From positions 12,941-76,940 of the forward strand of contig CAVXUP010000008.1 in assembly GCA_963765005.1 (NCBI GenBank): a stretch of DNA of 64,000 nt, written 5' to 3'. The stretch comes from an uncultured Bacteroidales bacterium. GTDB lineage: Bacteria; Bacteroidota; Bacteroidia; Bacteroidales; VadinHA17. The notes under the pieces are model-generated. The model was not told where the DNA came from, ran no database searches, and saw only the letters and a list, made by a program, of their open reading frames with translations. Position numbers and translations under genes: made by a program. Shown here piece after piece: positions 6,152-22,005 of the stretch (position 1 is its first letter; the number at the start of each line of letters is the position of its first letter).

Positions 6152-8638
6152 ATGAAATTATTTAAAGCAGGTACTTCATCAAAAAAAATCCTGGTTATCA
6201 TGGGATTCCTTGCAGGTATAGCAATATTACATTTTGCCTGCAATAAAACCGAAGATTATCCCAGAAAACCAGAGCGACTTGGATCCGGCAAAGTAAAGTG
6301 GGCAGAAACACTGACTCCGGACGGTTGGACTATTGTAACAAATGAAGGCGGGGTTACCCTCGGATATTCAAAGAGTTCCGGGCTTCAGCTTATCCAGGCC
6401 GACAAATATGCCTTCAAAGATCTTAACAGGAACAACCTTCTGGATCAATTTGAAGACTGGCGCGTTGACTTTAAAATAAGAGCCTCAGGCATGGTGAATG
6501 AGATCCCTGTTGATCAGATGATGGGCATGAAAATGAACCCATTCGGTATCGGGAGTGTCAATGCTGAATCATTGGATACTGTCATTAAAAACAGATTGGA
6601 AACAGGCTACAGACAACTACGGGCACCCGGAGCGAATACAACCGGAAAGGTTAAGGCTTCATGGAACAATATGGTACAGGAGTACATAGAATCGCTCGAC
6701 AGTATAGTCTGTATTCCTGCGGTCTGGATTGCCGATCCAAGATCAGGAGACGTATCCGACTGGCCAAGCAACCTTGCAATAGCTGCAACTTTTGATCCTG
6801 AGGTCGGAGCCGAATACGGAAGACTAATGTCAGAAGAATGGAGGGCAATGGGAATATCGATGCAGGTCGCAACACAGATGGACCTGGCTACAGAACCGCG
6901 CTGGAAGAGGATCTCCGGTACCTTCGGCGAAGACCCCGCCCTGTCGGTGGATATGGCCAGAGCAGTAATTAACGCATGGCAATCTACTTATGACACAGCC
7001 GGAAATGATCTGGGCTGGGGCGAACACAGTGTGAACAACCAGATGAAGCACTGGCCCGGAGATGGTGCTGCTGAAGGCGGACGTGAGTCGCATACCCGTG
7101 ATGGGGCATACAACGTATTCCCGGGCGGTCAGTTTTTTACACATCTCCTGCCATTTGTTGCGTGTATGGATTTACCGGGCAAGACTGAAACTGTAACCGC
7201 TGCCATGACAAACTTCTCTGTAGGTATTGAAAAGGATGGTTCGCCTGTTGGTAAGGAGCGCGTTGCATCAAGCTACAGCAAATATAAAATAAACACCATT
7301 TTAAGAGAGAAGTACGGCTGGGATGGCTATATCCTGACAGACTTTGGGATCATTACCGGCAAGAATTTCGGCGTGGAAGATCTGACTCCGGCTGAATGCA
7401 TGTTAGCGATCCTTGAAGCCGGATGCGATGCCTTCGGCGGTGAAGGCAGGTCGGGCAAGAAGGACATAGATCTGGCCATGGAGGCCTATAAGCTCGGAGT
7501 TAAAAAGCTGGGTGAGGAAGCAATGAACGAGCTTATGAGACACTCGACTGAAAGAATCCTGAGAACCCACTTTAACATTGGGATTGTTGACAATCCATAC
7601 CTGAGCATTGAGAAAGCCGAAACAGTTCCAAACAATGCCGAACATAACGCCCGCGGTTACCAGGCGATGCTCAGATCAGTCGTGATGCTGAAGAATACCG
7701 GCGGCATTATTCAACAGTCACCGGAAGGAGCAGGAAAAAAGACAGTGTATATCCCCAGGGTATATTCTGCAGCAACTACAGGTCGGCAAGCAAGTGCAGC
7801 AACTGCCAATCCTGCATTTAATCCCGAAGTGGCCGGAGAGTACTTTAATGTCGTAACTGATGCTCTGGCCGGGAAACTTACAGGCCCGAAGGATGCCGAG
7901 GGCAATCCCACGATATCGCCAAAAGACATCATACGTGCTTCAGCATCAGAAATAGCCAGATGCGACTTCGCCCTTGTCAGAATAAGCAGTCCTCAAAATG
8001 GGAATCCGACCTACATGGGATTCGGAGGCATTGCCACTGACGGCAGTAAATATACATATCTGCCTATTTCACTGCAATATCGACCCTACACAGCAAATTC
8101 AGAATCAGTGCGAAAGGAGTCTATCGGTGGAGATATGATTGAGGTGACAGAGAAATCGCCTGAAGGTTATGGCGATATGAAGTCGCTTGTAAAGGAGAAT
8201 CGGTCATATTTTGGAAAGACTGCTGTCATCAGGAATGAAAGTGATCTGGATCTCGTATTGAATGCCGCATCTGCGGCCAAAAAGGTCATTGTTGCCCTGA
8301 ACGTGTCAAGTCCGATGGTATTCAAGGAATTTGAAAGCAAGGTCGATGCAATCCTTGTGGGATTCGGAGGCGACAGGTCAGCCTATCTGCCCGACAAAGC
8401 ATTCCTTGAGATTATTGCCGGTAAGGCAGAGCCGTCCGGGTTACTGCCACTTCAGATGCCTGCGAATATGGAAACTGTAGAGGCTCAATTCGAGGATGTG
8501 CCGAGAGATATGAAATGTCATGTTGACAGCGACGGCAATACTTATGACTTTGCCTTCGGCCTGAACTGGTCGGGCGTGATCAAAGACATGCGCACTGCAA
8601 AGTATAATGTTGCTCCGATTGTCGGCGAAGTAAAATGA
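6152..8638 (+). CDS. GH3-family glycoside hydrolase (beta-glucosidase/xylosidase-like), lipoprotein
   Basis: 828 aa with a lipobox-like LHFAC. GH3 N-domain signature region TFGEDPALSVDMARAVINAWQ, followed by the alpha/beta sandwich and C-terminal domain. Confidence 0.9.
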   Translation: MKLFKAGTSSKKILVIMGFLAGIAILHFACNKTEDYPRKPERLGSGKVKWAETLTPDGWTIVTNEGGVTLGYSKSSGLQLIQADKYAFKDLNRNNLLDQFEDWRVDFKIRASGMVNEIPVDQMMGMKMNPFGIGSVNAESLDTVIKNRLETGYRQLRAPGANTTGKVKASWNNMVQEYIESLDSIVCIPAVWIADPRSGDVSDWPSNLAIAATFDPEVGAEYGRLMSEEWRAMGISMQVATQMDLATEPRWKRISGTFGEDPALSVDMARAVINAWQSTYDTAGNDLGWGEHSVNNQMKHWPGDGAAEGGRESHTRDGAYNVFPGGQFFTHLLPFVACMDLPGKTETVTAAMTNFSVGIEKDGSPVGKERVASSYSKYKINTILREKYGWDGYILTDFGIITGKNFGVEDLTPAECMLAILEAGCDAFGGEGRSGKKDIDLAMEAYKLGVKKLGEEAMNELMRHSTERILRTHFNIGIVDNPYLSIEKAETVPNNAEHNARGYQAMLRSVVMLKNTGGIIQQSPEGAGKKTVYIPRVYSAATTGRQASAATANPAFNPEVAGEYFNVVTDALAGKLTGPKDAEGNPTISPKDIIRASASEIARCDFALVRISSPQNGNPTYMGFGGIATDGSKYTYLPISLQYRPYTANSESVRKESIGGDMIEVTEKSPEGYGDMKSLVKENRSYFGKTAVIRNESDLDLVLNAASAAKKVIVALNVSSPMVFKEFESKVDAILVGFGGDRSAYLPDKAFLEIIAGKAEPSGLLPLQMPANMETVEAQFEDVPRDMKCHVDSDGNTYDFAFGLNWSGVIKDMRTAKYNVAPIVGEVK

Positions 8639-8678
8639 ACCTGGACAGGCTCTGATAAGGTACAAAGAATTTAAGCCT

Positions 8679-9455
8679 ATGGAAAAATCAGACAATCCCA
8701 AAGCAGCTGATAAAAAAAACCTCCCAATACAAATCAGCAATCTGAAAAAGAAGTTTAAAGACTATTTTTTTGATTTTTTTATGCTCTTTCTGGCGGTCAC
8801 TTTAGGCTTCTTTGTCAATAATCTGAGTGAAACCCGTTCTGACAGGCAAAGGGAAAAGCAATATATGATAAGTCTTGTAAATGATTTAATAGCCGATACA
8901 ACTCAAATCGGGGAAATTCATTCAAGTATCAAAAATCAAATAACCGGAATTGATTCCTTGCTTCGGGTTTTTGAAAACCCGGGTAAAAGGGATTTCATAA
9001 GCAATTTCTACTATTTCGCAGTAAAATATTTAAATTCAGCAACTTTCTTTTCCGGCTCCGACAGAACAATCAGTCAGTTAAAATCCTCAGGAGGATTAAG
9101 GCTCATTCAGAAAATTACGGTATCTGACAGTATAGTGAATTATTACAGTTCAGTAGAAAATGTCAAATATAACACCGAGTTCTGCCTTAAAGAATTCAAT
9201 AAGATATTGGATTATGAGAAGGAAATGATGGATTTCAAATATCTGAGAGTCTATAAAATAGATTCACTTCCTCAAATAAAGGATTTAGAATTGCTGGTAA
9301 ATGAACCGGTTAAAATTAGCCAGTTTTATAATCAGGTGATATCCTATCTCAGCTCATTAATTAACTATAATATTCTCATTAAAGATTTAAAACTTGAAGC
9401 TGAGTCCTTAATGAATTTAGTCAAGGAAAGTTATAATCTTAAAGATGCTTCCTGA
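8679..9455 (+). CDS. Hypothetical N-terminally anchored membrane protein (architecture resembles DUF6090)
   Basis: 258 aa. Basic N-terminus, a single TM (FFDFFMLFLAVTLGFFV), then a soluble helical domain. The family assignment is from memory only. Confidence 0.7.
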   Translation: MEKSDNPKAADKKNLPIQISNLKKKFKDYFFDFFMLFLAVTLGFFVNNLSETRSDRQREKQYMISLVNDLIADTTQIGEIHSSIKNQITGIDSLLRVFENPGKRDFISNFYYFAVKYLNSATFFSGSDRTISQLKSSGGLRLIQKITVSDSIVNYYSSVENVKYNTEFCLKEFNKILDYEKEMMDFKYLRVYKIDSLPQIKDLELLVNEPVKISQFYNQVISYLSSLINYNILIKDLKLEAESLMNLVKESYNLKDAS

Positions 9456-9463
9456 AAATATGA

Positions 9464-9625
9464 GCACACCTAATCACCGGAATAATCTGCGGGTATCGTG
9501 TGGAGGAAATCCAGGATCCGCTAACTCAGAAGGTCCGGTATCTCGATAAACTGGTTGATGAATTAGCGAAAGGGAGGAAGATGGAGAGGATTTTACGTGG
9601 CTCGCAGGATGCCGAAAAACCTTAG
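9464..9625 (+). pseudogene. 3' fragment of a DUF2200-family gene (C-terminal 53 codons only)
   Basis: Frame-2 translation [53 protein letters not shown] matches the conserved C-terminus of DUF2200 proteins as I recall them. It is preceded by an in-frame TGA at 9461-9463 and has no N-terminal part. Confidence 0.6.
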
Positions 9626-9648
9626 GGCCGTTGAGCCGACTAAATGCT

Positions 9649-10578
9649 ATGAATACTAATCTCATCAGTTTAAGAGCACAAAATCTCACAAAGACTTTCA
9701 ATGGTTTTGTTGCCGTAGAGAACCTTTCTGTTGAAATTGGGTTTGGAGAGATATTTGGATTACTTGGACCAAACGGAGCGGGAAAAACAACCTCTATCAG
9801 GATGATTACCGGTCTGTTAAAACCTGATTCAGGAAAAGTTGATTTCAATGTAAAAACCAACAACAAAAATAACGACATACTAAAAGTAGGGCTATGCCCG
9901 CAGGAACTGGTGTTATGGAATAATCTGACATGCCTCGAACAACTTGTTTTTATTGCTGAAATGTATAACGTTCCTGCCCCGGTTGCACGAGGGCGTGCGA
10001 AAATGCTTCTTGAGAAGATCGGCCTTTCTGAAAAAAGTAAAAAACTTGTCAAAACTCTTTCGGGGGGAATGCAGCGAAGAATGAATCTGATAATGGCTCT
10101 GATGCATGATCCGGAGATTCTGATACTTGATGAGCCTGAAGCAGGACTTGATCCACAGAGTCGCGTGATGGTCAGGGATTTCATATACTCATTATCGAAA
10201 ACCAAAACAGTGATTTTCACGACTCATAATATGGATGAGGCAGACCGCATTTGCGATCGGATTGCGATTATGGATCATGGCAAAATACTGATTTCAGATT
10301 CGCCTGAGAACCTTAAACGTAACATCGGGAAAAGAGATAAACTTGAAATCCACTTTTCAGGCCAGGCTATTCAGCTTAATGATATATCTAACCTTGCTGA
10401 TGAAGTTGAATTAAAAGAATCCTCAGTAATATTTAAATCGAAAGCAATAATTGACAGGATCCCATATATACTCGAATCATTGAAAAACAATGGCATTACA
10501 ATTACCGGTATGCATTTGAGTGAGAATACTCTTGAAGATGTATTTATTGCACTAACCGGACGAAAACTAAGAGAATAA
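9649..10578 (+). CDS. ABC transporter ATP-binding protein (ABC-2/drug-exporter type)
   Basis: Walker A GPNGAGKTT, signature LSGGMQRR, Walker B ILILDEP. ATG at 9649; the track start at 9631 is TTG. Confidence 0.92.
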   Translation: MNTNLISLRAQNLTKTFNGFVAVENLSVEIGFGEIFGLLGPNGAGKTTSIRMITGLLKPDSGKVDFNVKTNNKNNDILKVGLCPQELVLWNNLTCLEQLVFIAEMYNVPAPVARGRAKMLLEKIGLSEKSKKLVKTLSGGMQRRMNLIMALMHDPEILILDEPEAGLDPQSRVMVRDFIYSLSKTKTVIFTTHNMDEADRICDRIAIMDHGKILISDSPENLKRNIGKRDKLEIHFSGQAIQLNDISNLADEVELKESSVIFKSKAIIDRIPYILESLKNNGITITGMHLSENTLEDVFIALTGRKLRE

Positions 10579-10581
10579 GCT

Positions 10582-11703
10582 ATGAGGATAATTGCAATAA
10601 TAAAGAAAGCCCTTATAATGCAATTCCGCGATTTTTGGGCATTACTACTCACAATCTTATCAGCACCATTTTTTATCCTGATATACTACCTAATGACTGG
10701 TGGCAGCTCAACTACTTACTCAGTGAATCTCTTTTATGCCGACACATGCAAATCACAATTAATTAAGAATCAACTTATAAGCGAGCTAAAGGCAGTTAAG
10801 TATGCAAATGGGGAAGCAGCATTAAATGTTGTTGAGACAGAAGATACTGTAAGCGTTAAGAATCTGCTTAAAAACCGGAAAGCTGATCTTCTTATTACAA
10901 TCCCCCTGGGATTTGCAGATAGTTTAGTAACAGGCAAGGTTCCCGAATTCGTTATTACCGGTGAGGCAAGCAATCCAAAATACTCTATTGGGACAATCTT
11001 TACAATAACTGCTGTTGAGGCCCTTGTAGAAAAGGTTACAGGAAACAAACCATTATATACTTTCCGGGAGAGATTCATGGGCAATTCCATGACAAAATCG
11101 GAATTTGATATTTATGCTCCGGGAATATTTATTTTTTCAATAATAATGCTTATACTTTCTGCATCCCTCTCATTAATCAGAGATATTGAAGACAAGACAA
11201 TGATTAGACTGAAACTCTCTAAAATGACGGTCTTCGACTATCTTCTGGGCAATTCTCTGGTTCAGTGGGTAATTGGCGTCATATCTTTCGGACTGACGAT
11301 GTGGCTGGCAATCCTTCTTGGATTCAACAGTCAGGGTTCAACCATTCTGATTTTAGTAGTTTGCTCATTAACAATTCTTTCAATAATAGCTATCTGTCTT
11401 ATCCTTGTTTCATTCTGCAGAAATGCAACGATGGTCATGATTGTTGGCAATTTCCCGCTTTTTATTCTTATGTTTTTTACCGGGGCTATGATACCACTTC
11501 CCCGGAATGAAATATTTACTGGTTTTGCGTTAAACGACATACTTCCGCCCACACATGCTGTAATAGCGCTGAATAAAATATTTACTTTTGGGGCAGGCCT
11601 GCAAGAGATCCGTTATGAATTACTTATGCTTGGAATGCTGACGGTTTTATACTATTCAATCGGGGTCTGGCTTTTTAGAAGGAACCATATGTTAAAAGCA
11701 TGA
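10582..11703 (+). CDS. ABC-2 type transporter permease
   Basis: 373 aa. One N-terminal TM, a large extracytoplasmic loop and 5 C-terminal TMs. Starts 4 nt after the ATPase stop. Confidence 0.85.
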   Translation: MRIIAIIKKALIMQFRDFWALLLTILSAPFFILIYYLMTGGSSTTYSVNLFYADTCKSQLIKNQLISELKAVKYANGEAALNVVETEDTVSVKNLLKNRKADLLITIPLGFADSLVTGKVPEFVITGEASNPKYSIGTIFTITAVEALVEKVTGNKPLYTFRERFMGNSMTKSEFDIYAPGIFIFSIIMLILSASLSLIRDIEDKTMIRLKLSKMTVFDYLLGNSLVQWVIGVISFGLTMWLAILLGFNSQGSTILILVVCSLTILSIIAICLILVSFCRNATMVMIVGNFPLFILMFFTGAMIPLPRNEIFTGFALNDILPPTHAVIALNKIFTFGAGLQEIRYELLMLGMLTVLYYSIGVWLFRRNHMLKA

Positions 11704-11749
11704 CCTGATTCTGGACCAGATACATTAATACACTAAAAAATAATACCTT

Positions 11750-11824
11750 ATGGAAGACTTTTGCAATCCAAAATCTACTGGCAAAAAATACATTCCAAAA
11801 CAAATCAGCAATCTGAAAAAGTAG
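11750..11824 (+). pseudogene. 5' stub (24 codons then TAG) of a paralog of the 8679-9455 gene
   Basis: A codon-by-codon manual alignment to 8679-8765 gives 69/87 identical nt. This includes a 22-nt exact core, acaaatcagcaatctgaaaaag (8729-8750 = 11800-11821). Confidence 0.75.
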
Positions 11825-11856
11825 CTTAAAGACTTTATGAGTCTTGTCATAAGAAC

Positions 11857-12942
11857 ATGGACAATATTCAAGCTCTCAACAAACCAAATACATATAAGGA
11901 AATGAAGAACACGCCAACTTTCGCGGAAAAGGTTAAAAAATCTGCAGCGCTGACATTTTTAAGGCTCCCGATTCCGATCATCAGACTATTAATAGGGAAG
12001 CCGATCCTGATAGATGGTCAGACTATGGATCCGCTTGTGCAGTTTATGGTGAAATTTTTTGTCGACCATAAAGATGGCGACTTGCATGCAACAGAAGAGT
12101 TACGCAGAGAATTCGACATCCAGGGCAATTGGTTTTCACATAATCCGGAACCTTCCATTTCCATTACAGGATGGACCGTAAATGGGCCAAATGGTAATAT
12201 TCCTTGCGACATATATCGTCCCGCGAAACTGGCGGTAAAGGATGCTCCTGCCCTGGTATATTATCATGGCGGCGGATACGTGTCTGGTTCATTGGTATCG
12301 CACAGGAATCTCTGCCGGCAATTGGCCTTTGAAGTAAACTGTGCGATTGTGGCGGTAGATTACAGATTGGCACCCGAAAATAAATTTCCAATAGGGATAA
12401 ATGATTGCCTGGCTGCATATGATGCTGTTGTCCGACAAGCCAGGGAACTGGGTTTTGATCCAGGACGTATCTCTGTAGGAGGTGATAGTGCAGGAGGCAA
12501 TGCTTCTGCCGTTATTGCTCAGCAAAGGAAGTTGTCAGCCTTTCCACCAAAATTTCAAGCGCTATGGGTACCATGGTTAGACATGAGTAAACAAACCCGA
12601 TCATATGAACTAATGGGCGAAGGCTTCTTTCTGGAAAAGAAACAAATGGAATGGTACACCGCACATTATTTGCGTTCTGAAGAAGACGGGTTAAATCCAT
12701 TGGCTTCTCCATTGCTGGGAAATGTGGAAGGTGTATGTCCTGCTGCCGTATTTTCAGCCGGATTCGACCCGCTTCGGGATGAAGGCAAAGACTATGTTGA
12801 AAAATTAAAAGCAGCAGGTGTGCCTACCCATTACAGACTCTATGAAAGCGTGGTTCATCCCTTTGTTAATGTTGCAGGAAAGATACCAATTGCCCGAAAA
12901 GCATTTGATGAAGCAATCACAATTCTTAAAGAAAATATTTAA
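11857..12942 (+). CDS. Alpha/beta-hydrolase esterase/lipase, hormone-sensitive-lipase family (family IV)
   Basis: HGGG oxyanion motif (YYHGGGYVSGS) and GDSAGGN nucleophile elbow. Confidence 0.9.
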   Translation: MDNIQALNKPNTYKEMKNTPTFAEKVKKSAALTFLRLPIPIIRLLIGKPILIDGQTMDPLVQFMVKFFVDHKDGDLHATEELRREFDIQGNWFSHNPEPSISITGWTVNGPNGNIPCDIYRPAKLAVKDAPALVYYHGGGYVSGSLVSHRNLCRQLAFEVNCAIVAVDYRLAPENKFPIGINDCLAAYDAVVRQARELGFDPGRISVGGDSAGGNASAVIAQQRKLSAFPPKFQALWVPWLDMSKQTRSYELMGEGFFLEKKQMEWYTAHYLRSEEDGLNPLASPLLGNVEGVCPAAVFSAGFDPLRDEGKDYVEKLKAAGVPTHYRLYESVVHPFVNVAGKIPIARKAFDEAITILKENI

Positions 12943-13028
12943 AGTCATAAATTACTGCCTGGCAGGTGGTATCTGATGTATTTCCGGAGATTTTTCACAT
13001 ATTAATACCTTGGTAAATAATTTGAAAT

Positions 13029-13091
13029 ATGAGTACACATGACCAGCGTATCGCAAAAATGAATTTCACTTCGGGATATCCACAATCATGA
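13029..13091 (+). pseudogene. 5' stub (20 codons) resembling the N-terminus of DUF2200 proteins
   Basis: MSTHDQRIAKMNFTSGYPQS*. The RIAKM.F.S.YP pattern matches the recalled DUF2200 N-terminus. The stop overlaps the next gene's ATG (ATGA at 13088-13091). Confidence 0.5.
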
Positions 13092-13768
13092 AAACGGAGA
13101 TCATATCTTTTAACCTGGGAGTCACAACCTGTCATCTTCTAATCGGCAAAGATATCGTTATGATAGATGCCGGGATGCCGGGAAAACTGAAGCTCTTTAA
13201 AAAAATCCTTTCGGAACACAAGATCGATCCTTCGCGCATTAAACTGATTGTACTTACTCACTCCCATTTCGACCATTGCGGCACTGCGAAGGAGATAAGG
13301 GAACTCACCGGCGCAAAAATTGCACTTCATGAAAGTGAAAGGGAATGCGTTGAAAGCACTAAAGTATTAATACCTAGAGGAGTCAATCTCAAAGGGAAAA
13401 TTACACTGCCCTTAGTCTTTACATTCAAAATTCCATTCCCGAAGTTCAGTCCGGACATTATTCTCGGTTATGATCCGTATCCGCTTTCCGAATATGGAAT
13501 AGACGGCAGGATTATTCATACACCCGGACACACAGTCGGTTCGATGAGTGTACTGCTTGACACGGGAGAAGCTTTTGTCGGATGCATGGCCCATGACGGA
13601 TTCCCATTCAGATTCAGTCCCGGATTGCCGATCTATGCCCAGGATATTGAAGCAATTAAAGCAAACTGGAGAATACTTATCGACAAAGGGATAACTCATG
13701 TCTATCCCGGGCATGGCAGGGCATTCCCTGTTTCTGTAATGAAAAAAATACTTAGCTATCCCGGTTGA
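13088..13768 (+). CDS. MBL-fold metallo-hydrolase
   Basis: THSHFDHCG (HxHxDH) metal-binding motif; 226 aa. Confidence 0.9.
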   Translation: MKTEIISFNLGVTTCHLLIGKDIVMIDAGMPGKLKLFKKILSEHKIDPSRIKLIVLTHSHFDHCGTAKEIRELTGAKIALHESERECVESTKVLIPRGVNLKGKITLPLVFTFKIPFPKFSPDIILGYDPYPLSEYGIDGRIIHTPGHTVGSMSVLLDTGEAFVGCMAHDGFPFRFSPGLPIYAQDIEAIKANWRILIDKGITHVYPGHGRAFPVSVMKKILSYPG

Positions 13769-13879
13769 AACCAGTTAAAATCTCAATCACTTGCGCCATT
13801 TGACTAATAATTCTGCGATGCGACAGAGAATCACGGAGAAGTAACTAAAACGAAAACAATTATATTTAATTTCAATTCT

Positions 13880-13915
13880 ATGAGCAGGGGATTTGTTAAA
13901 GAAGAAGAAAATTGA
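13880..13915 (+). pseudogene. 5' stub (11 codons, MSRGFVKEEEN*) of a GreA/GreB-like gene
   Basis: 13877-13905 matches 15071-15099 at 28/29 nt. The latter is the start of the GreA-like gene. Confidence 0.8.
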
Positions 13916-13925
13916 TAATTATTAA

Positions 13926-14441
13926 ATGAATATTACTTTTATAACAAACGATCAACTATACAAACAAGTTATTGAGCCCATAGCATCGGCCTCCTCCTTC
14001 GTTTGGATAGGTACTGCTGATATAAAGGATTTGCATGTTCATCACAAAAACAGAGTCGAATCCTTCCTAAGCGTACTTGACAGCCTGTTGAATAGAAAAG
14101 TAGCCATACGTCTTTTACATGCAAAAGAACCCGGACCCATTTTTAGAAAAAGCTTTGACAAGTATCCCTTGTTATGGAAAAATATGGAAAGGCAATTATG
14201 CCCTAGGGTACATTTCAAACACATCATAATTGATGGTAAATTTGCTTATTCCGGTTCAGCAAATTTAACAGGTGCCGGCCTGGGGATTAAAAGCCCGAAT
14301 ACCCGTAACTTTGAATCAGGCTTTATCACAACAGATCCGGAAATTGTGAAGGCAATCATGAAACAATTTGACGAAGTCTGGATGGGAAAGTACTGCAAAG
14401 AATGCAAAAGAAAAGACTATTGCCACGATCCGATAATCTGA
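13926..14441 (+). CDS. Single-HKD phospholipase D-family protein (Nuc-like nuclease fold) with C-terminal Cys/His cluster
   Basis: HFKHIIID plus GSANLT (the HxKxxxxD...GSxN motif). 171 aa, no signal peptide. C-terminus CKECKRKDYCH. Confidence 0.85.
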   Translation: MNITFITNDQLYKQVIEPIASASSFVWIGTADIKDLHVHHKNRVESFLSVLDSLLNRKVAIRLLHAKEPGPIFRKSFDKYPLLWKNMERQLCPRVHFKHIIIDGKFAYSGSANLTGAGLGIKSPNTRNFESGFITTDPEIVKAIMKQFDEVWMGKYCKECKRKDYCHDPII

Positions 14442-14508
14442 CCCTGAAAAACCTTAGTTAACCGTATCTTAATGTACCAGGCCTATATTACTTTTAATTA
14501 TTTATGCC

Positions 14509-15018
14509 ATGGAAACAGCAAAAACACATGACAACTTCCCGGTCTGGATTGTATTGCTGTCCAGCCTGTTTTCATTCTTAATCTACCTTTCAGGTTTTGT
14601 CATTACTTTCAGCTTAAATGCGATTGCTGCTTGTCTGTATCTGGTATACATACTGGTTCTTGAGTTCAGATTACTTGGCTCCCATTGTGTCAACTGCTAC
14701 TATTGGGGCAAGACCTGCGGTTTTGGCAAAGGCAGGCTGAGTTCTTTGTTCTTTAAGAGAGGGGATCCATCAAAATTTTGTGAAAAAAGCTTGCGCTGGC
14801 AGGATATGATTCCTGACTTATTAGTTTTCCTTATTCCACTCCTGATAGCAATTGCTTTAATGATAATCCGATTCAATCTCATCATTCTGTTTGCAACAAT
14901 CGTACTAATTGCTCTGACAACAGCCGGAAATGGCTTTATTCGCGGCAACCTGACGTGCAAATATTGCAGGCAGAGAGAAATCGGGTGCCCGGCAGAACAG
15001 TTATTCCGTAAAAAATAA
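14509..15018 (+). CDS. Hypothetical 4-TM membrane protein with two Cys clusters
   Basis: 169 aa. Two TM pairs flank HCVNCYYWGKTCGFGKG, and the C-terminus carries CKYCRQREIGCP. No family recognised. Confidence 0.7.
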   Translation: METAKTHDNFPVWIVLLSSLFSFLIYLSGFVITFSLNAIAACLYLVYILVLEFRLLGSHCVNCYYWGKTCGFGKGRLSSLFFKRGDPSKFCEKSLRWQDMIPDLLVFLIPLLIAIALMIIRFNLIILFATIVLIALTTAGNGFIRGNLTCKYCRQREIGCPAEQLFRKK

Positions 15019-15073
15019 ATTGTCCTCTCCGTTGCGCGGACAAAAGAAAAAAAATGATTAAATATCCAAATCT

Positions 15074-15575
15074 ATGAGCAGAGGATTTGTTAAAGAAGAC
15101 GATCAGGAAGAAGTTCCAATGGTACCTCGAAGGGCATATTTACCGGAAGGAGTGACAAACTTTGTAACCCCAAATGGGTATGAATCAACTATTGGCTGAG
15201 AAACAGATGCTGACCGATGAAAAAAACAATCTGAATAATGCCAATGAGAATGAGAAACGAATTGCATTAAACTATATTAATGCAAAATTACAACTATTGA
15301 ATAACAGAATTGCTGAAGCCAAAATAGTTAATCCAAATGAGCAACCTCAAAATGAAATAAGATTCGGTGCAATTATAACTCTCAAAACAGAAGCATCTGA
15401 AAATATTCAGACTTTTCAAATTGTCGGCGTTGATGAAGCAGATATTTCCAAAGGGAAAGTCTCCTTTATATCACCTATTGCCAGGGTATTAATAAATAAA
15501 AAAACCGGAGACATAGTTAGTTTAAAACAGGCCGGAAAAGATATTGTTTTTGAAATTAGTAAGCATATCCTATAA
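15074..15575 (+). pseudogene. GreA/GreB-family transcription factor-like gene, interrupted by a +1 frameshift at GGG 15176-15178
   Basis: 15074-15199 encodes MSRGFVKEDDQEEVPMVPRRAYLPEGVTNFVTPNG..., then stops. 15174-15575 encodes the coiled coil plus the GreA C-terminal domain (FQIVGVDEADISKGKVSFISPIARVLINKKTGD). Removing one G restores VTPNGMNQLLAEK. Confidence 0.8.
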
Positions 15576-15625
15576 CCAATCAGTTAAAGAGAATTAAAAG
15601 ACCGGTTGCATCAGGATTGATAGTT

Positions 15626-16075
15626 ATGAAAATTTTGAAAACTCACTATATGAAAAGATTATCTGGATTCTTTTTCCTCGTTTTAGTTGTGCTTATCCTA
15701 TCCTGTGATAAAAAAGAAACATCTCCTTTTGGACTTAATTGCGAAAACCTTAAAAATGGAATCATTACCTCCGATGAGGACCTTATTGGTACAGAAATAT
15801 CAAAACTGATTCAGGATTTAGTTCCAAAGCCGACTACAGATGACAGTATCGGGCACATTGCAAATTTTGAACTGCTATTTGAGAGACTAAGACCCTGTGG
15901 CGAAACAAGCGCACAGATTGTCTGTTATGGATGTGGTGAAATAAATCCGCAAATTACAGAATTGGTAATCATGACCTACTCAGGTAATCAGCAATACGTT
16001 CAGGTAATTGACATTATTTGCCAGAGAGACAGTGTTCTTGCTTACAGAGGCATACATGATGATAACAGTAAATGA
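15626..16075 (+). CDS. Hypothetical lipoprotein
   Basis: Signal peptide with lipobox (FFFLVLVVLILSC). The start could be 15626 or 15650; the track start at 15617 is TTG. Confidence 0.65.
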   Translation: MKILKTHYMKRLSGFFFLVLVVLILSCDKKETSPFGLNCENLKNGIITSDEDLIGTEISKLIQDLVPKPTTDDSIGHIANFELLFERLRPCGETSAQIVCYGCGEINPQITELVIMTYSGNQQYVQVIDIICQRDSVLAYRGIHDDNSK

Positions 16076-16153
16076 AACAACACCTAGCACTCATGCCACG
16101 ACCTTGTCAATTAGGCTTCATGCAGTATAATCCCAAAAAAAAGTGATACCCAA

Positions 16154-16663
16154 ATGCCTGCTTCTTATAGATTTCAAAATATTCCACGGTCGAGAATTGC
16201 AACATTTGACATTTTTGCAATTGGACTAAGGAAGCATCATATTGTGGCTATGCTCGAATTCGATGTTACTGAAAGCAGGTCCAGACTCAGGAACCTGAGA
16301 AAAAATGGAGCTACTGTTTCATTTAATGCATGGCTAATAAAAGTTATTGGAATGGTCTTGCATAAACATTCTGAAGCGGCAGCATATCTTTATAACAAAA
16401 AGAAACTCATTATCTTCAATGACATCAATATCTCTTTAATTGTAGAAAAGAAAATCGGTGATGCTAAAGTTCCGATACCAATGGTCATCGAAAAGACAAA
16501 CGAAAAATCAGCACTCGAAATAACTAAAGAGATTGAAATAGCCAAAAACCAGGGCCTTACAACTCATGACATCGTACTCAAAAAACAATCAACCTCATAT
16601 GAAAGATTGTACTACCAGCTTCCAGGATTTCTGAGAAGACTTTTTGGAGAATCTTGCTGCTAA
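16154..16663 (+). CDS. 2-oxoacid dehydrogenase acyltransferase (E2) catalytic-domain protein, N-terminal fragment
   Basis: Contiguous with 16654-16956 if one T is added to the T5 run 16641-16645 (LRRLFWRILLLNPKAAF). No lipoyl or E3-binding domain is present. Confidence 0.75.
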   Translation: MPASYRFQNIPRSRIATFDIFAIGLRKHHIVAMLEFDVTESRSRLRNLRKNGATVSFNAWLIKVIGMVLHKHSEAAAYLYNKKKLIIFNDINISLIVEKKIGDAKVPIPMVIEKTNEKSALEITKEIEIAKNQGLTTHDIVLKKQSTSYERLYYQLPGFLRRLFGESCC

Positions 16664-16956
16664 ATCCCAAAGCAGCATTCAGGACTATGGGTAACGTGGC
16701 GGTTACATCAGTTGGGATGATGGGTAAAATTAACGGGTGGTTTATTCACAAATCAGTTCATCCTGTTTCTTTTGGAGTAGGGTCTGTCATTAAGAAACCT
16801 GTTGTTTTTGAAAATGAGGTAAAAATCAGGGAAATCCTGAACATGACTATCCTGGTTGACCATGACGTTGTTGATGGAGCCCCGATGGTAAGGTTTCTTG
16901 ACGATTTGACAGACTATGTAGAGAATGGAAAGGAAATAGACAACGTTTTCGTATAA
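16654..16956 (+). CDS. 2-oxoacid dehydrogenase acyltransferase (E2) catalytic-domain protein, C-terminal fragment
   Basis: Contains the catalytic DHDVVDG motif (family DHRxxDG). Confidence 0.8.
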   Translation: MLLNPKAAFRTMGNVAVTSVGMMGKINGWFIHKSVHPVSFGVGSVIKKPVVFENEVKIREILNMTILVDHDVVDGAPMVRFLDDLTDYVENGKEIDNVFV

Positions 16957-17021
16957 AACGGATTCACTGTATGCAGTGAACAATTTCAGGCCAAAATCCT
17001 TTATAATAGAAAACCAAAACT

Positions 17022-17447
17022 ATGGCAGAATTAAAAACAAAACTAAACACTGCGGACGTTAGTGAATTTATCAACTCGTTTGCCGATACGGATCAAAAGC
17101 GTAAGGACAGTTTTGAGTTACTGAAACTGATGCAGGATTATACAGGATTTGAACCAAAAATGTGGGGGGCTTCCATTATAGGATTTGGCAGCTATCATTA
17201 CAAATCGGAGAGAAGCAGCCAGGAAGGCGACTGGCCATTGGTTGGATTTTCGCCCCGAAAGGCAGCTATCTCGCTTTATGTATACACTGCACTCAAAGAG
17301 CATGAATATCTCCTTGAGGGCTTGGGAAAGTTTAAAATGGGTAAAGCCTGCATCTACATTAAAAAATTATCTGATATCGACCAGGAGTCACTCAAAAAAA
17401 TAATGAAGGCAACAATTGATTATTTACAATCGAGGTATGGGAAATAA
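17022..17447 (+). CDS. DUF1801 (YdhG-like) domain protein
   Basis: 141 aa. VSEFINSF...KMWGASIIGFGSYHYK...ISLYV pattern of DUF1801. Confidence 0.75.
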   Translation: MAELKTKLNTADVSEFINSFADTDQKRKDSFELLKLMQDYTGFEPKMWGASIIGFGSYHYKSERSSQEGDWPLVGFSPRKAAISLYVYTALKEHEYLLEGLGKFKMGKACIYIKKLSDIDQESLKKIMKATIDYLQSRYGK

Positions 17448-17567
17448 TGCAAAGCCATGCAGATCCTTTCTCCTTGCCCGCAGATCGATCGTGACAAGCA
17501 ATAACCAGATAAAAATTTAGAATTTTAGTTAAAGGATATTTCTTAAATTGACTGAAAATTTCAAATA

Positions 17568-18815
17568 ATGAAAAACGCGATTGTCAAATTCACCGTTCTG
17601 ATAGTGCTGGCTATTACTTATGCCTGTTCATCTGGCGTTAAAACACCTCCTAAGGAAGTGAAACCAGTTGAAAGTGATTATTATGTGGCGGCATATATCT
17701 GGCCGTCGTGCCATAACGATTCATTAGCCCTGAAGAAGCTGTGGCCTGAAGGCACCGGCGAATGGGAAGTGATCAAAAAGGGCAATCCCCGTTTCGAAGG
17801 ACATTACCAGCCCCGTCAGCCGCTCTGGGGCTACGAACTGGACAATGATCCGAAAGTCGTGGAGAAATGGATTGATGCGGCCACTGACCACGGTGTAAAT
17901 GTCTTCGTCTACGACTGGTACTGGTACGAAGGAGGCCCTTTCCTCGAAAGCGCCCTGAATGATGGCTTCCTGAAAGCAAAGAACAACGAAAAAATGCAAT
18001 TTTATGTAATGTGGGCAAACCACGATGTAAAATACAATTACTGGAACTATCACCTTTACAAGGACAACACCGATATCCTGTGGAACGCCAAAGTGGACTG
18101 GGAAAACTATAAAATAATCGTTGACAGGATAATCAACCAGTATTTCAAGAGACCAAACTATTTTAAGGTAAATGGCGAACCCTTATTTTCGATCTTCAGC
18201 GTGCCAAAACTGCTTGAAAGCTTTGGAGGCAGTGCGGAAGAAGCACGCAAAGCTCTTGATTACTTCCGCGAGGAAGTGAAAAAGGCAGGATTCCCCGGCT
18301 TGCATATCCAGTGGAACCAGGGCGGCGGCTCTGTTATGTCGGAAGCGGCAGCCGGCCAGTTTGTCAACAATGTGAAGACTATGGGTTTCAACAGTGTTGC
18401 AATGTACAATATGGGCGGCCGCGTTGAAGATTATATTTCTTACGGAACCAATTCCGTAAAGATCCGGGAACAAATGGACGCCATCCTCGATGTACCGGTC
18501 TTTCCCTGCGTGTCGATCGGATGGGACGATACCCCGCGTTTCCCCGGGAAAGGGATTCAGGATGTAGTTCATTACAACAACACTCCACAAAGTTTTGCAA
18601 CGCTTCTCTCCAAAGCAAAAAAATATGCCGACAGTCATCCCGAACAGCCAAAACTGATTACAATCAACGCATGGAACGAATGGGTGGAAGGCAGTTACCT
18701 GCTGCCCGACATGCTCAATGGCTTCGGCTATCTGGAAGCAGTGAAGGAGGTTATCTTGACGATAAATACGACAGGTATTAAAAACAGAAAAGCATGCCAA
18801 CAGGTAAATCCATAA
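17568..18815 (+). CDS. WbsX / GH99-like domain lipoprotein
   Basis: Lipobox ITYAC. YVAAYIWPSCHND...GHYQPRQPLWGYELDNDPKVVEKWIDAATDHGVNVFVYDWYWY is typical of the WbsX-like family. Confidence 0.75.
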   Translation: MKNAIVKFTVLIVLAITYACSSGVKTPPKEVKPVESDYYVAAYIWPSCHNDSLALKKLWPEGTGEWEVIKKGNPRFEGHYQPRQPLWGYELDNDPKVVEKWIDAATDHGVNVFVYDWYWYEGGPFLESALNDGFLKAKNNEKMQFYVMWANHDVKYNYWNYHLYKDNTDILWNAKVDWENYKIIVDRIINQYFKRPNYFKVNGEPLFSIFSVPKLLESFGGSAEEARKALDYFREEVKKAGFPGLHIQWNQGGGSVMSEAAAGQFVNNVKTMGFNSVAMYNMGGRVEDYISYGTNSVKIREQMDAILDVPVFPCVSIGWDDTPRFPGKGIQDVVHYNNTPQSFATLLSKAKKYADSHPEQPKLITINAWNEWVEGSYLLPDMLNGFGYLEAVKEVILTINTTGIKNRKACQQVNP

Positions 18816-19372
18816 AAGAACTGTCACCAGAACAACGTGATGAACTTATCAGAATCCTGAAAGCCCGTTTTGAGAAAAACACAATCCGTCATACAGGTCT
18901 TGATTGGGTTGAAGTAATGGCAAAGCTTAACTCACCATTAAACCGGGAAAAACTAAGGTCAGTCGCTGAAATGGAAAGAACCGGCGGTGAGCCTGATGTT
19001 GTTGGTTTTGATAAAAAGACCGGTGAATATATTTTTTACGATTGTTCAGCTGAGAGTCCGGCAGGCCGCAGAAGTCTCTGCTACGACAGTGAAGCGCTGG
19101 AATCGAGAAAAGAGAATAAGCCAAAAGACAGCGCTCTGGGTATGGCTGCCGCAATGGGTATTGATCTTTTAACTGAGGAACAATACCGCGAATTGCAGAA
19201 GCTTGGGAATTTCGACACAAAAACCTCGAGTTGGGTGAAAACACCTCCGGAGATCAGAATACCTGGCGGCGCAATCTTTTGCGATCGCCGGTACAACCAG
19301 GTCTTCGTGTATCACAATGGTGCAGAATCATACTATGCTGCCAGGGGGTTTCGCGGCTCGCTAAGGGTCTGA
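18794..19372 (+). CDS. DUF4256 domain protein
   Basis: MERTGGEPDVVGFDKKTGEYIFYDCSAESPAGRRSLCYD and the C-terminal YHNGAESYYAARGFRGSLRV match the recalled DUF4256 consensus. Overlaps the upstream gene by 22 nt. Confidence 0.8.
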   Translation: MPTGKSIKELSPEQRDELIRILKARFEKNTIRHTGLDWVEVMAKLNSPLNREKLRSVAEMERTGGEPDVVGFDKKTGEYIFYDCSAESPAGRRSLCYDSEALESRKENKPKDSALGMAAAMGIDLLTEEQYRELQKLGNFDTKTSSWVKTPPEIRIPGGAIFCDRRYNQVFVYHNGAESYYAARGFRGSLRV

Positions 19373-19388
19373 TCAAATAGAGAGAGGT

Positions 19389-19790
19389 TTATTCAGATAG
19401 CCTGCTTTTGCTATCAGGAGTGCTTACTGTTGATACAATGAAACCCATAACAACAGTTCCAATGACTCCGATTATCACGACAATCACTTTTATTGCAAAG
19501 GGATTGATAAGGAAAATGCACGAGAGAGCTATCATAAGCCACATGATGCCGATTGAAATCAGCTTGGCCCTCCTTGTCATTCCTTTCTTCGTATGAAGAT
19601 CTGAAATATAAGCACCGATGAATTTATTAGCTGTCAGTTTCTGATACAGTTTATCTGAACTTTTAATATACAAGCCGGCAGTAAGCAAAAAAAAGGGTGT
19701 TGAGGGCAAGCCCGGGACAACAATGCCGATTATTCCTATAGTCAGCGAGAGCGTACCCAGGACAATAAGCAATATTTTAATCAGATTCAT
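19389..19790 (-). CDS. DUF454 (YbaN-like) inner-membrane protein
   Basis: Start at ATG 19790 (MNLIKILLIVLGTLSLTIGIIGIVVPGLPSTPFFLLTAG). The track ORF extends upstream with an implausible leader. Confidence 0.8.
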   Translation of the reverse strand: MNLIKILLIVLGTLSLTIGIIGIVVPGLPSTPFFLLTAGLYIKSSDKLYQKLTANKFIGAYISDLHTKKGMTRRAKLISIGIMWLMIALSCIFLINPFAIKVIVVIIGVIGTVVMGFIVSTVSTPDSKSRLSE

Positions 19791-20004
19791 TTTCTGTTTT
19801 TTGGCTATTATGATTATGAAAATGATTTGCAGTGAGATCTTCAATCCTGAAATCAAGTATTGCTCTAAACAAATTTCTGGCAATTTAATCATTTTAGCGT
19901 CAGGATAACCGATGGCTGAAAATAAACAGAGACACAGGCGGATTGTCAGGTAAAATCTGCTTAAAATATAAGCCAGCAACAAAACACGATACAGGATTAT
20001 ACCC

Positions 20005-20012
20005 TATATTTG
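20005..20012 (+). promoter_or_regulatory. Candidate Bacteroidota -7 promoter box (TATATTTG)
   Basis: Matches TAnnTTTG 49 nt upstream of the rsgA ATG. No clear -33 TTG. Confidence 0.25.
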
Positions 20013-20060
20013 ATATTGAATGATTCACATTTTAAAATTTCACGAAATAAAGAGCAGATA

Positions 20061-21125
20061 ATGCAACTGGAAGACTTAGGCTATAATAATTCACTTGAGA
20101 AATTCAGAACAGACAATAACCTGTGCGAATTTGAGATTGGAAGGGTTATTGCTGAACATAAGGAAAGATATACTGTAAAAACAAATCTGGGTGAATTTGA
20201 AGCAGAGATTACAGGCAATTTAAGGTTTACTGCAAAAAGCCGGGAGGATTTTCCTGCTGTAGGTGACTGGGTGGCACTCACAACGTATGAATCCGATTTT
20301 GCAATTATTCATAAAATCCTGCCCAGGTTTTCAATAATCAAACGGCAGGCAGTAGGGCAATTTGGGGAGGTCCAGATAATCGCGGCAAATATAGATTACG
20401 CTTTTCTGGTTCAGGCTGTCGACAGGGATTTCAATATAAACAGGCTTGAAAGATACCTTACAATTTGCAATTCATCGGCAGTTGCCCCTATAATCCTGAT
20501 CACCAAGACTGATTTAATAGATCAGGATCAGCTTTCTGAGATTCTGGAGTCAATAAAGGTCAGGATAAAAGACGTGCCTGTTATTGCAATAAGCAACGAG
20601 TCACACGAGGGGTACGAAACAATAAGGGCAACAATCGAAAAAGGGAAAACTTATTGTTTACTGGGTTCTTCAGGTGTCGGGAAATCCACCTTGCTGAATA
20701 ATCTTTCAGGCCTCTCTTTGATGAAAACAGACACTATCAGCAATAGTACAAACAAAGGCCGACATGTTACAAGCCACAGGGAATTGATCATTCTTGAAAA
20801 TGGAGGTATAATTGTTGACAATCCGGGTATGAAAGAAGTTGGAATTGTTGATAAGTCTGGTGGATTGGAAGCTACTTTTGACGTGATTATCACCATTTCC
20901 CGGTCATGTAAATTCAAAGATTGCACTCACACCAGCGAAACCGGATGTTCTGTTCTTGAGGCTGTTGAAAATGGAGAAATAGACAGGGCTTCCTACGAGA
21001 ATTATCTTAAAATGGAAAGAGAGAAAGCCCATTTTGAATCGACAGTTGCGGAGAGAAAAAGGAAAGAGAAGATTTTTGGGAAAATAATCAAGGATTATAA
21101 TAAGAAAAACATAAAACAAAGATAG
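20061..21125 (+). CDS. rsgA: Ribosome small-subunit-dependent GTPase A
   Basis: OB-fold N-terminus, circularly permuted GTPase with GSSGVGKSTLLN, and a C-terminal zinc knuckle CKFKDCTHTSETGC. Confidence 0.92.
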   Translation: MQLEDLGYNNSLEKFRTDNNLCEFEIGRVIAEHKERYTVKTNLGEFEAEITGNLRFTAKSREDFPAVGDWVALTTYESDFAIIHKILPRFSIIKRQAVGQFGEVQIIAANIDYAFLVQAVDRDFNINRLERYLTICNSSAVAPIILITKTDLIDQDQLSEILESIKVRIKDVPVIAISNESHEGYETIRATIEKGKTYCLLGSSGVGKSTLLNNLSGLSLMKTDTISNSTNKGRHVTSHRELIILENGGIIVDNPGMKEVGIVDKSGGLEATFDVIITISRSCKFKDCTHTSETGCSVLEAVENGEIDRASYENYLKMEREKAHFESTVAERKRKEKIFGKIIKDYNKKNIKQR

Positions 21126-21160: not shown

Positions 21161-21781
21161 ATGCAGACAAGACTATCCATTTTTATAACATTCTTATTGC
21201 TCTGTTTATCTTGCAATACGGTTTCTGAAAAAGAGTCGACTTCTTTTCTCAGGATATCCGAAAACAGAAGATATCTGACTACTGAAAACGGCAAACCATT
21301 TTTCTGGCTGGGCGATACAGGATGGCTGCTCTTTACAAAACTTACACGCGAAGAGGCAGAAAAATACTTTGAAGACAGGCGTCAGAAGGGATTCAATGTG
21401 ATACAGATTATGGTGCTGCATAATGTAAGTAAGGCAGTAAATGTTTACGGAGATTCTGCACTTGTAAACCAGAATATTGATCAGCCATTAACAACATCCG
21501 GAAATTCGTCTGATAACCCTGAACAATATGATTACTGGGACCATGTTGATTACCTTATAAACCTGGCCGGGGAAAAAGGTTTATATATGGCCCTTGTGCC
21601 TGTGTGGGGCTCCAACATCAGGAGCGGCAGGATAAGCAGTGAAAAAGCAGGAAAATATGCAGCCTGGCTTGCAGCAAGGTATAAGGACAAGTCAAATGTC
21701 ATCTGGCTGAACGGCGGCGATATTAAAGGCAGTGATTCAACAGCCATATGGAAAACTATAGGTCTACTATACGACAAGTAA
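21161..21781 (+). CDS. GH140-like (DUF4038 apiosidase-like) glycoside hydrolase, fragment 1 of 3
   Basis: Signal peptide plus ENGKPFFWLGDTGWLLF...RRQKGFNVIQIMVL. The frame breaks near 21761-21765. Confidence 0.8.
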   Translation: MQTRLSIFITFLLLCLSCNTVSEKESTSFLRISENRRYLTTENGKPFFWLGDTGWLLFTKLTREEAEKYFEDRRQKGFNVIQIMVLHNVSKAVNVYGDSALVNQNIDQPLTTSGNSSDNPEQYDYWDHVDYLINLAGEKGLYMALVPVWGSNIRSGRISSEKAGKYAAWLAARYKDKSNVIWLNGGDIKGSDSTAIWKTIGLLYDK

Positions 21782-22005
21782 GTCCGGATCAGCTCATTAC
21801 CTTTCATCCCTTCGGCCGGACACAATCATCAGAATGGTTCCATAACGAAACATGGCTCGATTTCAATATGTTTCAATCGGGCCACCGCAGGTACGATCAG
21901 GATACTTCAGGACTGGCTTACGGGGAAGATAACTGGAAATATGCTGTTGATGATTATGGTAAAACGCCGATTAAAGCCAACTCTCGATGGAGAACCTTCA
22001 TATGA
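21748..22005 (+). CDS. GH140-like glycoside hydrolase, fragment 2 of 3
   Basis: Continues the DUF4038 domain (ITFHPFGRTQSSEWFHNETWLDFNMFQSGH). The frame breaks again at the A3 run 21973-21975. Confidence 0.75.
   Translation: MENYRSTIRQVSPDQLITFHPFGRTQSSEWFHNETWLDFNMFQSGHRRYDQDTSGLAYGEDNWKYAVDDYGKTPIKANSRWRTFI

Follow-up and report, generated by a model that had tools for sequence, protein, structure and literature searches.

Gene-start stubs in a variable accessory-gene array of a Bacteroidales chromosome as probable scars of recombination and deletion

How do three neighbouring accessory genes come to lie, each of them, directly behind the first codons of an unrelated gene? The question is raised by a 64,000-nt stretch of DNA from an uncultured Bacteroidales bacterium (contig CAVXUP010000008.1, positions 12,941 to 76,940 of the forward strand; this whole stretch is called the window and its first letter is position 1). 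Here an esterase gene, a gene for an MBL-fold hydrolase (MBL) and a PLD-like gene (PLD) follow three such stubs in a hypervariable, co-directional array of small accessory genes that occupies 8.7-19.4 kb. A preliminary description of the sequence had read the recurrence as a systematic process acting on the 5' ends of genes. We compared the array with related metagenome and metagenome-assembled genome contigs, numbered here as L loci, the closest of which, L155 (Ga0105099_10035476), comes from another sample. The comparison points to a different answer: the stubs are probably non-functional scars, left in a variable, cassette-derived array by deletion and by recombination that was either illegitimate or homologous on one side only.

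The stubs themselves are genuine relics of gene starts. Their coordinates and translations proved exact as first described, and for each the homology to a gene start exceeds chance (tblastn, a 28/29 nt match or pairwise E-values); these match statistics rule out chance open reading frames (ORFs) as their origin. The genes that follow match Abhydrolase_3, Lactamase_B and PLDc_2 in Pfam and do lie, in the present arrangement, directly behind foreign 5' regions, as had been proposed. The features on which the argument depends are the following.

8679-9455, plus strand: gene A, intact, encoding a 258-aa membrane protein; parent family of stub 1 (96.7% nt identity to L155 90-867).
9456-11836, plus strand: block 1, missing in L155, with a DUF2200 relic, an ABC ATPase (9631-10578), an ABC-2 permease (10582-11703) and stub 1.
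9460-9625, plus strand: internally deleted DUF2200 pseudogene, its start ATGAGCACAC joined out of frame to the C-terminal ~50 codons (9464-9625).
11735-11836, plus strand: stub 1, comprising 15 nt upstream and 29 codons of a diverged A-family gene (repeat with 8664-8763; tblastn).
11837-11855, plus strand: native 3' flank of A-family genes (TGAGTCTTGTCATAAGAAC), immediately after stub 1.
11857-12942, plus strand: esterase, Abhydrolase_3, hormone-sensitive-lipase type (Pfam E 1e-65).
13029-13083, plus strand: stub 2, codons 1-18 of a DUF2200 gene, the ORF running on to 13091 (L155 homology ends at 13083).
13084-15057, plus strand: block 2, missing in L155, with MBL (13088-13768), a spacer, stub 3, PLD (13926-14441) and a membrane protein (14509-15018) (blastn, Pfam).
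13848-13908, plus strand: stub 3, comprising 32 nt upstream and ~10 codons of a GreA-like gene, the ORF running on to 13915 (repeat with 15042-15102).
15074-15575, plus strand: gene C, GreA-like, full length, frameshifted near 15176 into ORFs 15074-15199 and 15174-15575 (Pfam).

The ORF of stub 1 (11750-11824) encodes MEDFCNPKSTGKKYIPKQISNLKK followed by a stop. It matches the start of gene A across 29 codons (tblastn E 3.8e-7), and the two form a 100-nt direct repeat (D1) of 76% identity, with its partner at 8664-8763. The homology continues beyond the TAG codon (11822-11824, an AAG>TAG change) as far as 11836; the N-terminus obeys the family pattern PKQI..LKKK.KD and is cut right before the invariant FFDFFMLFLAV segment. 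The name DUF6090-like given earlier to this parent has to be dropped, as neither gene A nor any listed homologue matches DUF6090: a Pfam domain was found in none of the 152 homologues of A, and 8679-9455 has no Pfam or NCBIfam match at E up to 10. Exact-protein look-ups for A and PLD found no record.

Stub 2 (13029-13091) encodes MSTHDQRIAKMNFTSGYPQS followed by a stop, in an ATGA overlap with the MBL start codon at 13088. It aligns start to start with the full DUF2200 protein of L163 (12/18 identities, E 3e-8). Alone it is too short for hmmscan; its L155 orthologue, MGTHDQRIAKMTFTSVYPLYLSKVEKILLG and a stop, matches DUF2200 (PF09966) at positions 1-20 (E 1.2e-3), and stub 2 extended by the L155 residues reaches E 0.055 against the same profile. 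The DUF2200-like assignment is thereby borne out by the profile match of the orthologue and the identities to the L163 protein. A full-length parent gene is absent from the window. Stub 3 (ORF 13880-13915) encodes MSRGFVKEEEN and a stop, 10 nt before the PLD start codon at 13926. Its match of 28/29 nt (E 8e-9) to the start of the intact gene at 15071-15099 confirms the GreA-like parent, and it belongs to a 61-nt imperfect direct repeat (D2) with 15042-15102, of 77-82% identity, which includes the 32 nt upstream.

What these stubs are becomes clear from L155, which has the order A, esterase, DUF2200 mini-remnant and GreA-like gene, with no ABC transporter, MBL or PLD. By blastn, L155 90-867 corresponds to window 8678-9455, 867-2112 to 11837-13083 and 2161-2585 to 15058-15485, the last at 86% identity; over A and the esterase the two are 96-97% identical at the nucleotide level. 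The gaps in this alignment mean that the window holds two additional blocks, 9456-11836 and 13084-15057, the second represented by 48 nt in L155. The breakpoints accordingly lie between 9455 and 9456, 11836 and 11837, 13083 and 13084, and at ~15057. Compared with this 96%-identical relative, three foreign or rearranged blocks would have been spliced in at, or a few nucleotides from, ORF boundaries, and resident genes would have suffered internal deletions in addition; each stub would be the remainder of a gene at such a joint.

The flank TGAGTCTTGTCATAAGAAC that directly follows stub 1 also stands after the A stop codon in L155, L164 and L167, and not after the intact A of the window, which leads straight into the start context of DUF2200; L155 position 867 aligns with both 9455 and 11837, bracketing block 1. 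Since block 1 ends at the stub and A's own 3' flank comes next, stub 1 is not a gene struck by an insertion; it is the right-hand edge of the extra 2.4-kb block and not its target. At the right end of the ABC-transporter block would thus stand an A paralogue without codons 30-258. Either a fragment ending in this paralogue was inserted, in a single event, at the A stop codon, or a complete paralogue (A') was imported and codons 30-258 would have been lost afterwards. A possible TATGAG occurs at both ends of the block, depending on a 5-nt indel relative to L155. Two other routes were rejected: a Campbell-type single crossover would leave the stub ahead of the full gene, whereas here it lies behind, and deletion via a TTAAAGA repeat in A predicts a junction that disagrees with the sequence.

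The distance from stub 1 to the next gene also needs correction. The esterase had been given a start at 11857; a start at 11902 is likelier, as nearly all close homologues have 346 aa and the 15-codon extension (11857-11901) has an in-frame stop in L155. Homology with L173 begins at 11881. Thus 11902 is probably the true start, and the enzyme as translated probably does not include the extension. In L155, where the esterase lies ~64 nt behind intact A, the ATG further upstream begins a short ORF of its own, joined to the esterase start by an ATGA overlap.

Stub 2 tells a different history. It is present in L155 without MBL and is therefore older than the MBL join, and the homology between window and L155 stops 4 nt upstream of the MBL start codon. 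A resident DUF2200 gene would thus have been cut after codon 18 by the MBL block. To this extent the suggestion of insertion just inside the 5' ends of genes holds, in that MBL follows DUF2200 codon 18 in the comparison with L155; it does not hold as a systematic process. The homologues of MBL, at 54-77% identity, sit in unrelated contexts, with no synteny with the window in 25/25 related loci.

The DUF2200 gene has also been cut in other ways. A fourth relic, missed in the preliminary description, lies between A and the ABC ATPase (9460-9625); it matches PF09966 at E 9e-22, over profile positions 68-111 of 111, and its start context matches that of stub 2 (repeat D5). In the mini-gene of L155 the same gene carries another internal deletion, lying between two copies of TGGAGAAG. 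DUF2200 has thus left three independent relics, each with its own deletion (window 9460-9625, window 13029-13083 and the L155 mini-gene), and they show deletional compaction directly. A search for a C-terminal DUF2200 relic on the plus strand after MBL gave no support. On the minus strand, immediately after the MBL stop, 13764-13814 encodes RIISQMAQVIEILTGFN, which resembles DUF2200 residues 29-45 (QVIEWLTGF motif) with a window-level E of 0.76 and no Pfam match. The lead is unconfirmed; were it real, part of the old DUF2200 gene would have been inverted.

Stub 3 has its intact counterpart close by. Gene C is interrupted near 15176 at a GG>GGG run; once repaired, it matches Pfam GreA_GreB (E 5e-19) and its residues 1-161 align with 80 metagenome homologues. 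Over this gene the window and L155 have only 86% nt identity, and stub 3 and the GreA-like gene of L155 both have AGG as their third codon, which is rare (2 of ~80 homologues). On these two grounds the sequences suggest that stub 3 is the displaced 5' end of the resident gene and that intact C arrived with PLD and the membrane protein gene. The stub would be a displaced or co-imported GreA 5' end, and its imperfect repeat with the intact copy flanks these two genes. GreA-like homologues have different neighbours at almost every locus; in L089 and L126 PLD comes downstream of GreA, and WbsX stands on one side in L086/L087 and on the other in L099/L145. In L081-L160 synonymous diversity is lower over the first 15 codons of the GreA-like gene (MSRGFVKEDDQEE..) than further on (codon entropy of 0.49, compared with 0.89, at conserved residues). 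The idea that the GreA 5' end is unusually conserved at the nucleotide level because it is a recombination site was considered and rejected: the drop is only moderate, includes codons constrained by the search pattern and is typical of gene starts.

A recurrent signature emerges, namely an inserted block together with an imperfect direct repeat (60-180 nt, 76-86% identity) over a gene start or stop, one copy of which is truncated. Such a block and repeat, with flanks closer to relatives, are predicted by homology-facilitated illegitimate recombination (HFIR). The copies agree with each other at 76-82% identity, far less than the flanking genes agree with L155 (96-97%), so that one copy of each pair must derive from a different lineage; at both D1 and D2 a remnant stands beside an intact, divergent copy with DNA between them. 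Incoming DNA would pair through a conserved gene, and its other end would be joined illegitimately nearby, displacing the end of the resident gene. The illegitimate joining would take place at AT-rich gene boundaries, often with a homology anchor on one side in a conserved neighbour. Deletional compaction would come next, trimming unselected DNA, and selection would retain only those outcomes that leave useful ORFs intact and transcribed. With spacers of only 4-160 nt, a joint can spare both neighbours only if it lies no more than a few bases from a start or stop codon; all other joints leave stubs. HFIR in orphan arrays of type VI secretion system (T6SS) and Rhs loci has been proposed to yield displaced gene remnants (PMC5361080).

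Remnants of this kind also occur in other loci and at both gene ends. L161 carries a 3' remnant of DUF2200 (100 nt, 84% identity) behind an inserted HigBA pair (3929-4028 vs 4787-4886), and L118 a 3' remnant of the GreA-like gene (86% identity) 3.6 kb behind the intact copy (347-507 vs 3943-4140); in L004 a 5' stub of MBL, with ~130 nt upstream and 17 codons, lies 2.2 kb before intact MBL (7633-7813 vs 9870-10050). The view of a systematic 5' process is not supported, on these grounds: 3' remnants exist as well (window 9464-9625, L161 and L118), stub 2 predates MBL, and stub 1 is a block edge. The three joints, GACTTT/ATGAGTC, ATCCAC/AATCATG and AAGAAGA/AGAAAATTG (slash at the joint), have no motif in common, as had been noted at the outset, and none has a GTT core. 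The gene content from A to DUF4256/RsgA differs among relatives, with 0.26 kb between A and DUF4256 in L164, the order A-GATase-APH-86aa-RsgA in L167 and 9.3 kb between A and DUF4256/RsgA in the window. The partial duplications of gene ends in L004, L118 and L161 flank inserted genes, for example FMN reductase and HigBA, in a manner similar to stub 3, PLD and GreA. A self-comparison of 164 sequences (1.63 Mb) gave 143 short direct and 11 inverted repeats (28-400 nt, 0.2-8 kb apart), an excess due largely to attC arrays and co-directional paralogues.

Several points weigh against recombination scars. No joint shows more than 5-6 nt of microhomology, which is ambiguous, and a donor with the order ABC-ABC-A' or PLD-membrane-GreA was not found via the ABC-permease, A and esterase homologues. 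A single insertion of block 1 exactly at the A stop, ending in an A paralogue, is a coincidence, and the alternative, deletion of the A' body, requires additional steps. HFIR is rare and, to our knowledge, natural transformation is not established for this group. Finally, breakpoints fall repeatedly 0-20 nt from start or stop codons, and something more specific could be at work; we attribute this closeness to the very short spacers plus selection.

The cassette-derived character of the array is suggested by the related contigs, where the same genes are flanked by attC-like sites, in these arrays:

L160 680-4210; L164 5041-6205; L172 1470-2080; L150; L001; L012.

These sites follow the consensus xCTAACACGGACAATAAAGG ... 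CCTTTATTGCCGGGCCGTTAGGY over 100-560 nt, R'' (RYYYAAC) and R' (GTTRRRY) included. They flank the GreA-like gene in L160, A in L164-L166 and MBL in L001/L012, and follow the ABC pair in L172; L164 has the order A-attC-DUF4256. The attC-like sites of L160 fold significantly compared with shuffles (z -2.6 and -2.7). The contigs look like large sedentary integron or CALIN arrays from Bacteroidales-like genomes, a CALIN being a cluster of attC sites without integrase (PMC8618304). Both integrons and CALINs have been described from Bacteroidota (PMC8618304). Neither the window nor L155 has attC-like sites of this kind; in the window array, a fuzzy search for the two attC ends of the L160 and L164 type found none, and nine window spacers fold no better than shuffles (z -1.7 to +1.5). 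Most of the cassette leader sequence is gone from the window genes; ahead of the MBL start codon no more than 8 native bases are left, compared with ~76 in L012. The A and GreA cassettes have conserved leaders of 65-115 nt, which are partly kept upstream of the stubs. With the same genes attC-flanked elsewhere, no attC in the window and the leaders mostly gone, the array gives the impression of having been drawn from the pool of cassette genes and compacted, without attC, and it consists, as a CALIN would, of compact, co-directional ORFs that are unrelated to each other and are met elsewhere as cassettes. A GC-rich palindrome, CCTGCCTGCC...GGCAGGCAGG, lies inside attC-like sites (L164 6151; L172 1862) and interrupts the TIR stub of L016 (9508-9529) described below; the window has only a short version of it, CTGCCTGGCAG, at 12955-12965, right after the esterase stop.

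The rival that survives best is selected promoter capture, in which promoterless cassette ORFs would be fixed behind a foreign promoter, leader and first codons, and the stub would drive or couple them. The ATGA overlap of stub 2 with MBL, the 10-nt gap between stub 3 and PLD, and the cassette leaders of A and GreA partly retained upstream of the stubs agree with it, as do further MBL homologues that stand, in four different contexts (L016-L019), behind a ~30-codon stub of a TIR-domain gene (M.SIIPGYEYDIFISYRQKDNKGDRWVSEF). These and one further TIR stub-MBL unit are:

L016 9475-9611; L017 9884-10000; L018 1625-1741; L019 9885-10000; L024 ~9900-10000.

In L016-L018 the stop codon lies 4 nt upstream of the MBL start. 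However, the TIR stub is disrupted in L016, frame-shifted in L019 and decayed in L024, so the stub peptide is not conserved. Its central 60 nt are more conserved than MBL, which may come from gene conversion by TIR paralogues. In the window, stub 1 is interrupted by a stop codon, and 77 nt separate its end from the probable start of the esterase; the esterase of L155, behind intact A, needs no stub at all. Stub 2 differs from L155 at 5/54 nt (3 nonsynonymous and 1 synonymous codon changes) and evolves faster than the adjacent esterase. From the TAG in stub 1 and the 3 nonsynonymous to 1 synonymous changes in stub 2, the stubs seem to decay neutrally. The purifying selection expected of a leader peptide or regulatory upstream ORF is not seen, given the TAG of stub 1, the changes in stub 2, the broken TIR stubs and the lack of any Rfam match.

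Nor do transcription signals favour capture. The exact Bacteroidetes -7 motif TAnnTTTG is absent within 100-120 nt upstream of every stub and array gene, and a sigma-70 scan gave hits no commoner than in shuffles. Terminator-like sites are likewise no more frequent than in shuffles; with no terminator excess in a co-directional array, read-through transcription suffices for expression. The downstream genes may be read from the region upstream of the stub or simply by read-through of the array. We regard promoter capture by stubs as unlikely.

A stronger version, in which stub fusion is a recurrent, selected route for the domestication of integron cassette genes, is more doubtful still. Leader-bearing cassettes (A, GreA-like and TIR) would be cut to a promoter plus stub and fused a few nucleotides before a promoterless ORF. 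If this is true, the fusion would fix the ORF in the chromosome with no attC and at the same time turn on its expression; examples would be the three cases of the window, L004 and, in L016-L019, the units of TIR stub and MBL.

A dedicated mobile system (a site-specific recombinase, a transposon or an integrase acting at secondary sites) that places single-gene cargo inside 5' ends is, in our judgement, highly improbable. The joints do lie near ORF starts (4 nt before MBL and 18 nt before PLD), the same genes are integron cassettes in relatives, and partial duplications of gene ends flank the inserts as attL and attR would. Yet no recombinase, transposase or intI (tyrosine recombinase) occurs among the Pfam-scanned ORFs of the 64-kb window, which agrees with the earlier reading, and Rfam and tRNA searches of the window found no known RNA family and no tRNA target. 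The window spacers are without attC-like ends or hairpins, the three joints have neither a GTT-type nor any other common motif, and window MBL is without the ~70-nt cassette leader of L012. In addition, the repeats are imperfect (76-84% identity), 3' remnants are also present, and stub 2 predates MBL. For an attL/attR pair one would look for an integrase and an exact core; the 1.2-kb insert consists of PLD and the membrane protein only, and the 3.1-kb insert of A, the DUF2200 relic and the ABC genes only. The 28/29 core of D2 is uninformative here, because this stretch is conserved in all 80 GreA homologues.

Last, a chimeric contig joining different strains at short common sequences, conceivable for an uncultured organism and in view of the frameshifted GreA-like, 2-oxoacid_dh and apiosidase genes of the region (possible sequencing errors), deserves next to no credit and is made very unlikely by an independent Logan assembly of ERR12035938 with the same spacings over all three stubs (permease-154 nt-esterase, esterase-146 nt-MBL, MBL-158 nt-PLD) and by joints that lie away from the shared repeat cores on which a graph mis-join would have to fall, and L155, from another sample, has stub 2 at the same place.

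Recombination scars with deletion thus remain the preferred reading, and the surroundings of the stubs fit an ordinary Bacteroidales chromosome, which the window is: it also encodes a P-type ATPase, SusD, peptidases, L-aspartate oxidase, a tRNA synthetase, glycosyltransferases and PorP/SprF (Pfam). Two further features complete the array.

15559-17562, plus strand: block 3, with a lipoprotein-like ORF, a split 2-oxoacid_dh fragment and DUF1801 (Pfam; blastn of L086/L087).
17568-21125, far side of the array: WbsX-like, DUF4256, DUF454 (minus strand) and RsgA genes, which recur beside A or C in relatives (Pfam).

In L086 and L087 GreA directly adjoins WbsX, so that block 3 is extra relative to those loci (blastn); after it, homology to them restarts 5 nt upstream of the WbsX start codon. 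The GC content of the variable stretch (9456-17567) is 39.2%, compared with 43.9% for the window. The suggestion that the stretch may be compositionally distinct needs correction: the value is only ~1.2 standard deviations below the window mean (standard deviation of 1-kb windows, 3.8%), and the GH3 gene, put earlier at well above 50% GC, has a computed value of 48%. The catalytic-domain fragment of 2-oxoacid_dh (16154-16956) is split into two ORFs and the apiosidase-like gene (21161-22552) is split with a 160-nt gap; these two and the broken GreA-like gene are either true pseudogenes or homopolymer sequencing errors. Farther away, on the minus strand at 51728-63861, giant repetitive ORFs of 1611, 620 and 1697 aa adjoin the PorP/SprF gene. 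Repeat units of ~330 nt are found in several frames, and the ORFs are probably the pieces of a single, very large gene for a type IX secretion cargo or an adhesin that frameshifts have broken up.

The region reveals no new insertion mechanism, and its stubs are instructive but ordinary scars. Its value lies in being a well-resolved example of the remodelling of a flexible array, whose gains, cuts and decay can be read to the nucleotide with L155. It also indicates that integron-cassette genes of related Bacteroidales can end in compact attC-less arrays, which bears on their chromosomal fixation. Annotation pipelines should treat such stubs as pseudogene fragments.

Three known systems invite comparison. 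Integration hotspots and minimal mobile elements hold variable genes between conserved flanks and exchange them by homologous recombination. Similarly, A and DUF4256/RsgA bracket 0.26 kb, ~2 kb or 9.3 kb of differing genes; here, however, the flanks are mobile themselves (A is a cassette in L164), and truncated genes are left behind, so the exchanges were not clean double crossovers. The orphan arrays of the Vibrio cholerae T6SS and of Rhs and contact-dependent inhibition (CDI) loci (PMC5361080) are comparable in that a conserved gene serves as the homology anchor and the other end is joined illegitimately, the displaced resident end persists beside an intact copy, successive events build a co-directional array, and the duplicated segments diverge as donor and recipient do. 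There the cargo is toxin-immunity genes and the remnants are 3' ends; here unrelated accessory enzymes are accompanied by both 5' and 3' remnants, and no donor was found. Integrons and CALINs differ from the window, which is without attC-like ends, structured spacers or intI; its spacers are 4-160 nt, its joints do not fall at GTTRRRY cores and its leaders are truncated. In common with them, the window holds co-directional, small, unrelated and mostly promoterless accessory genes, and its A, GreA-like, MBL and ABC-pair families are attC-flanked in related metagenome contigs.

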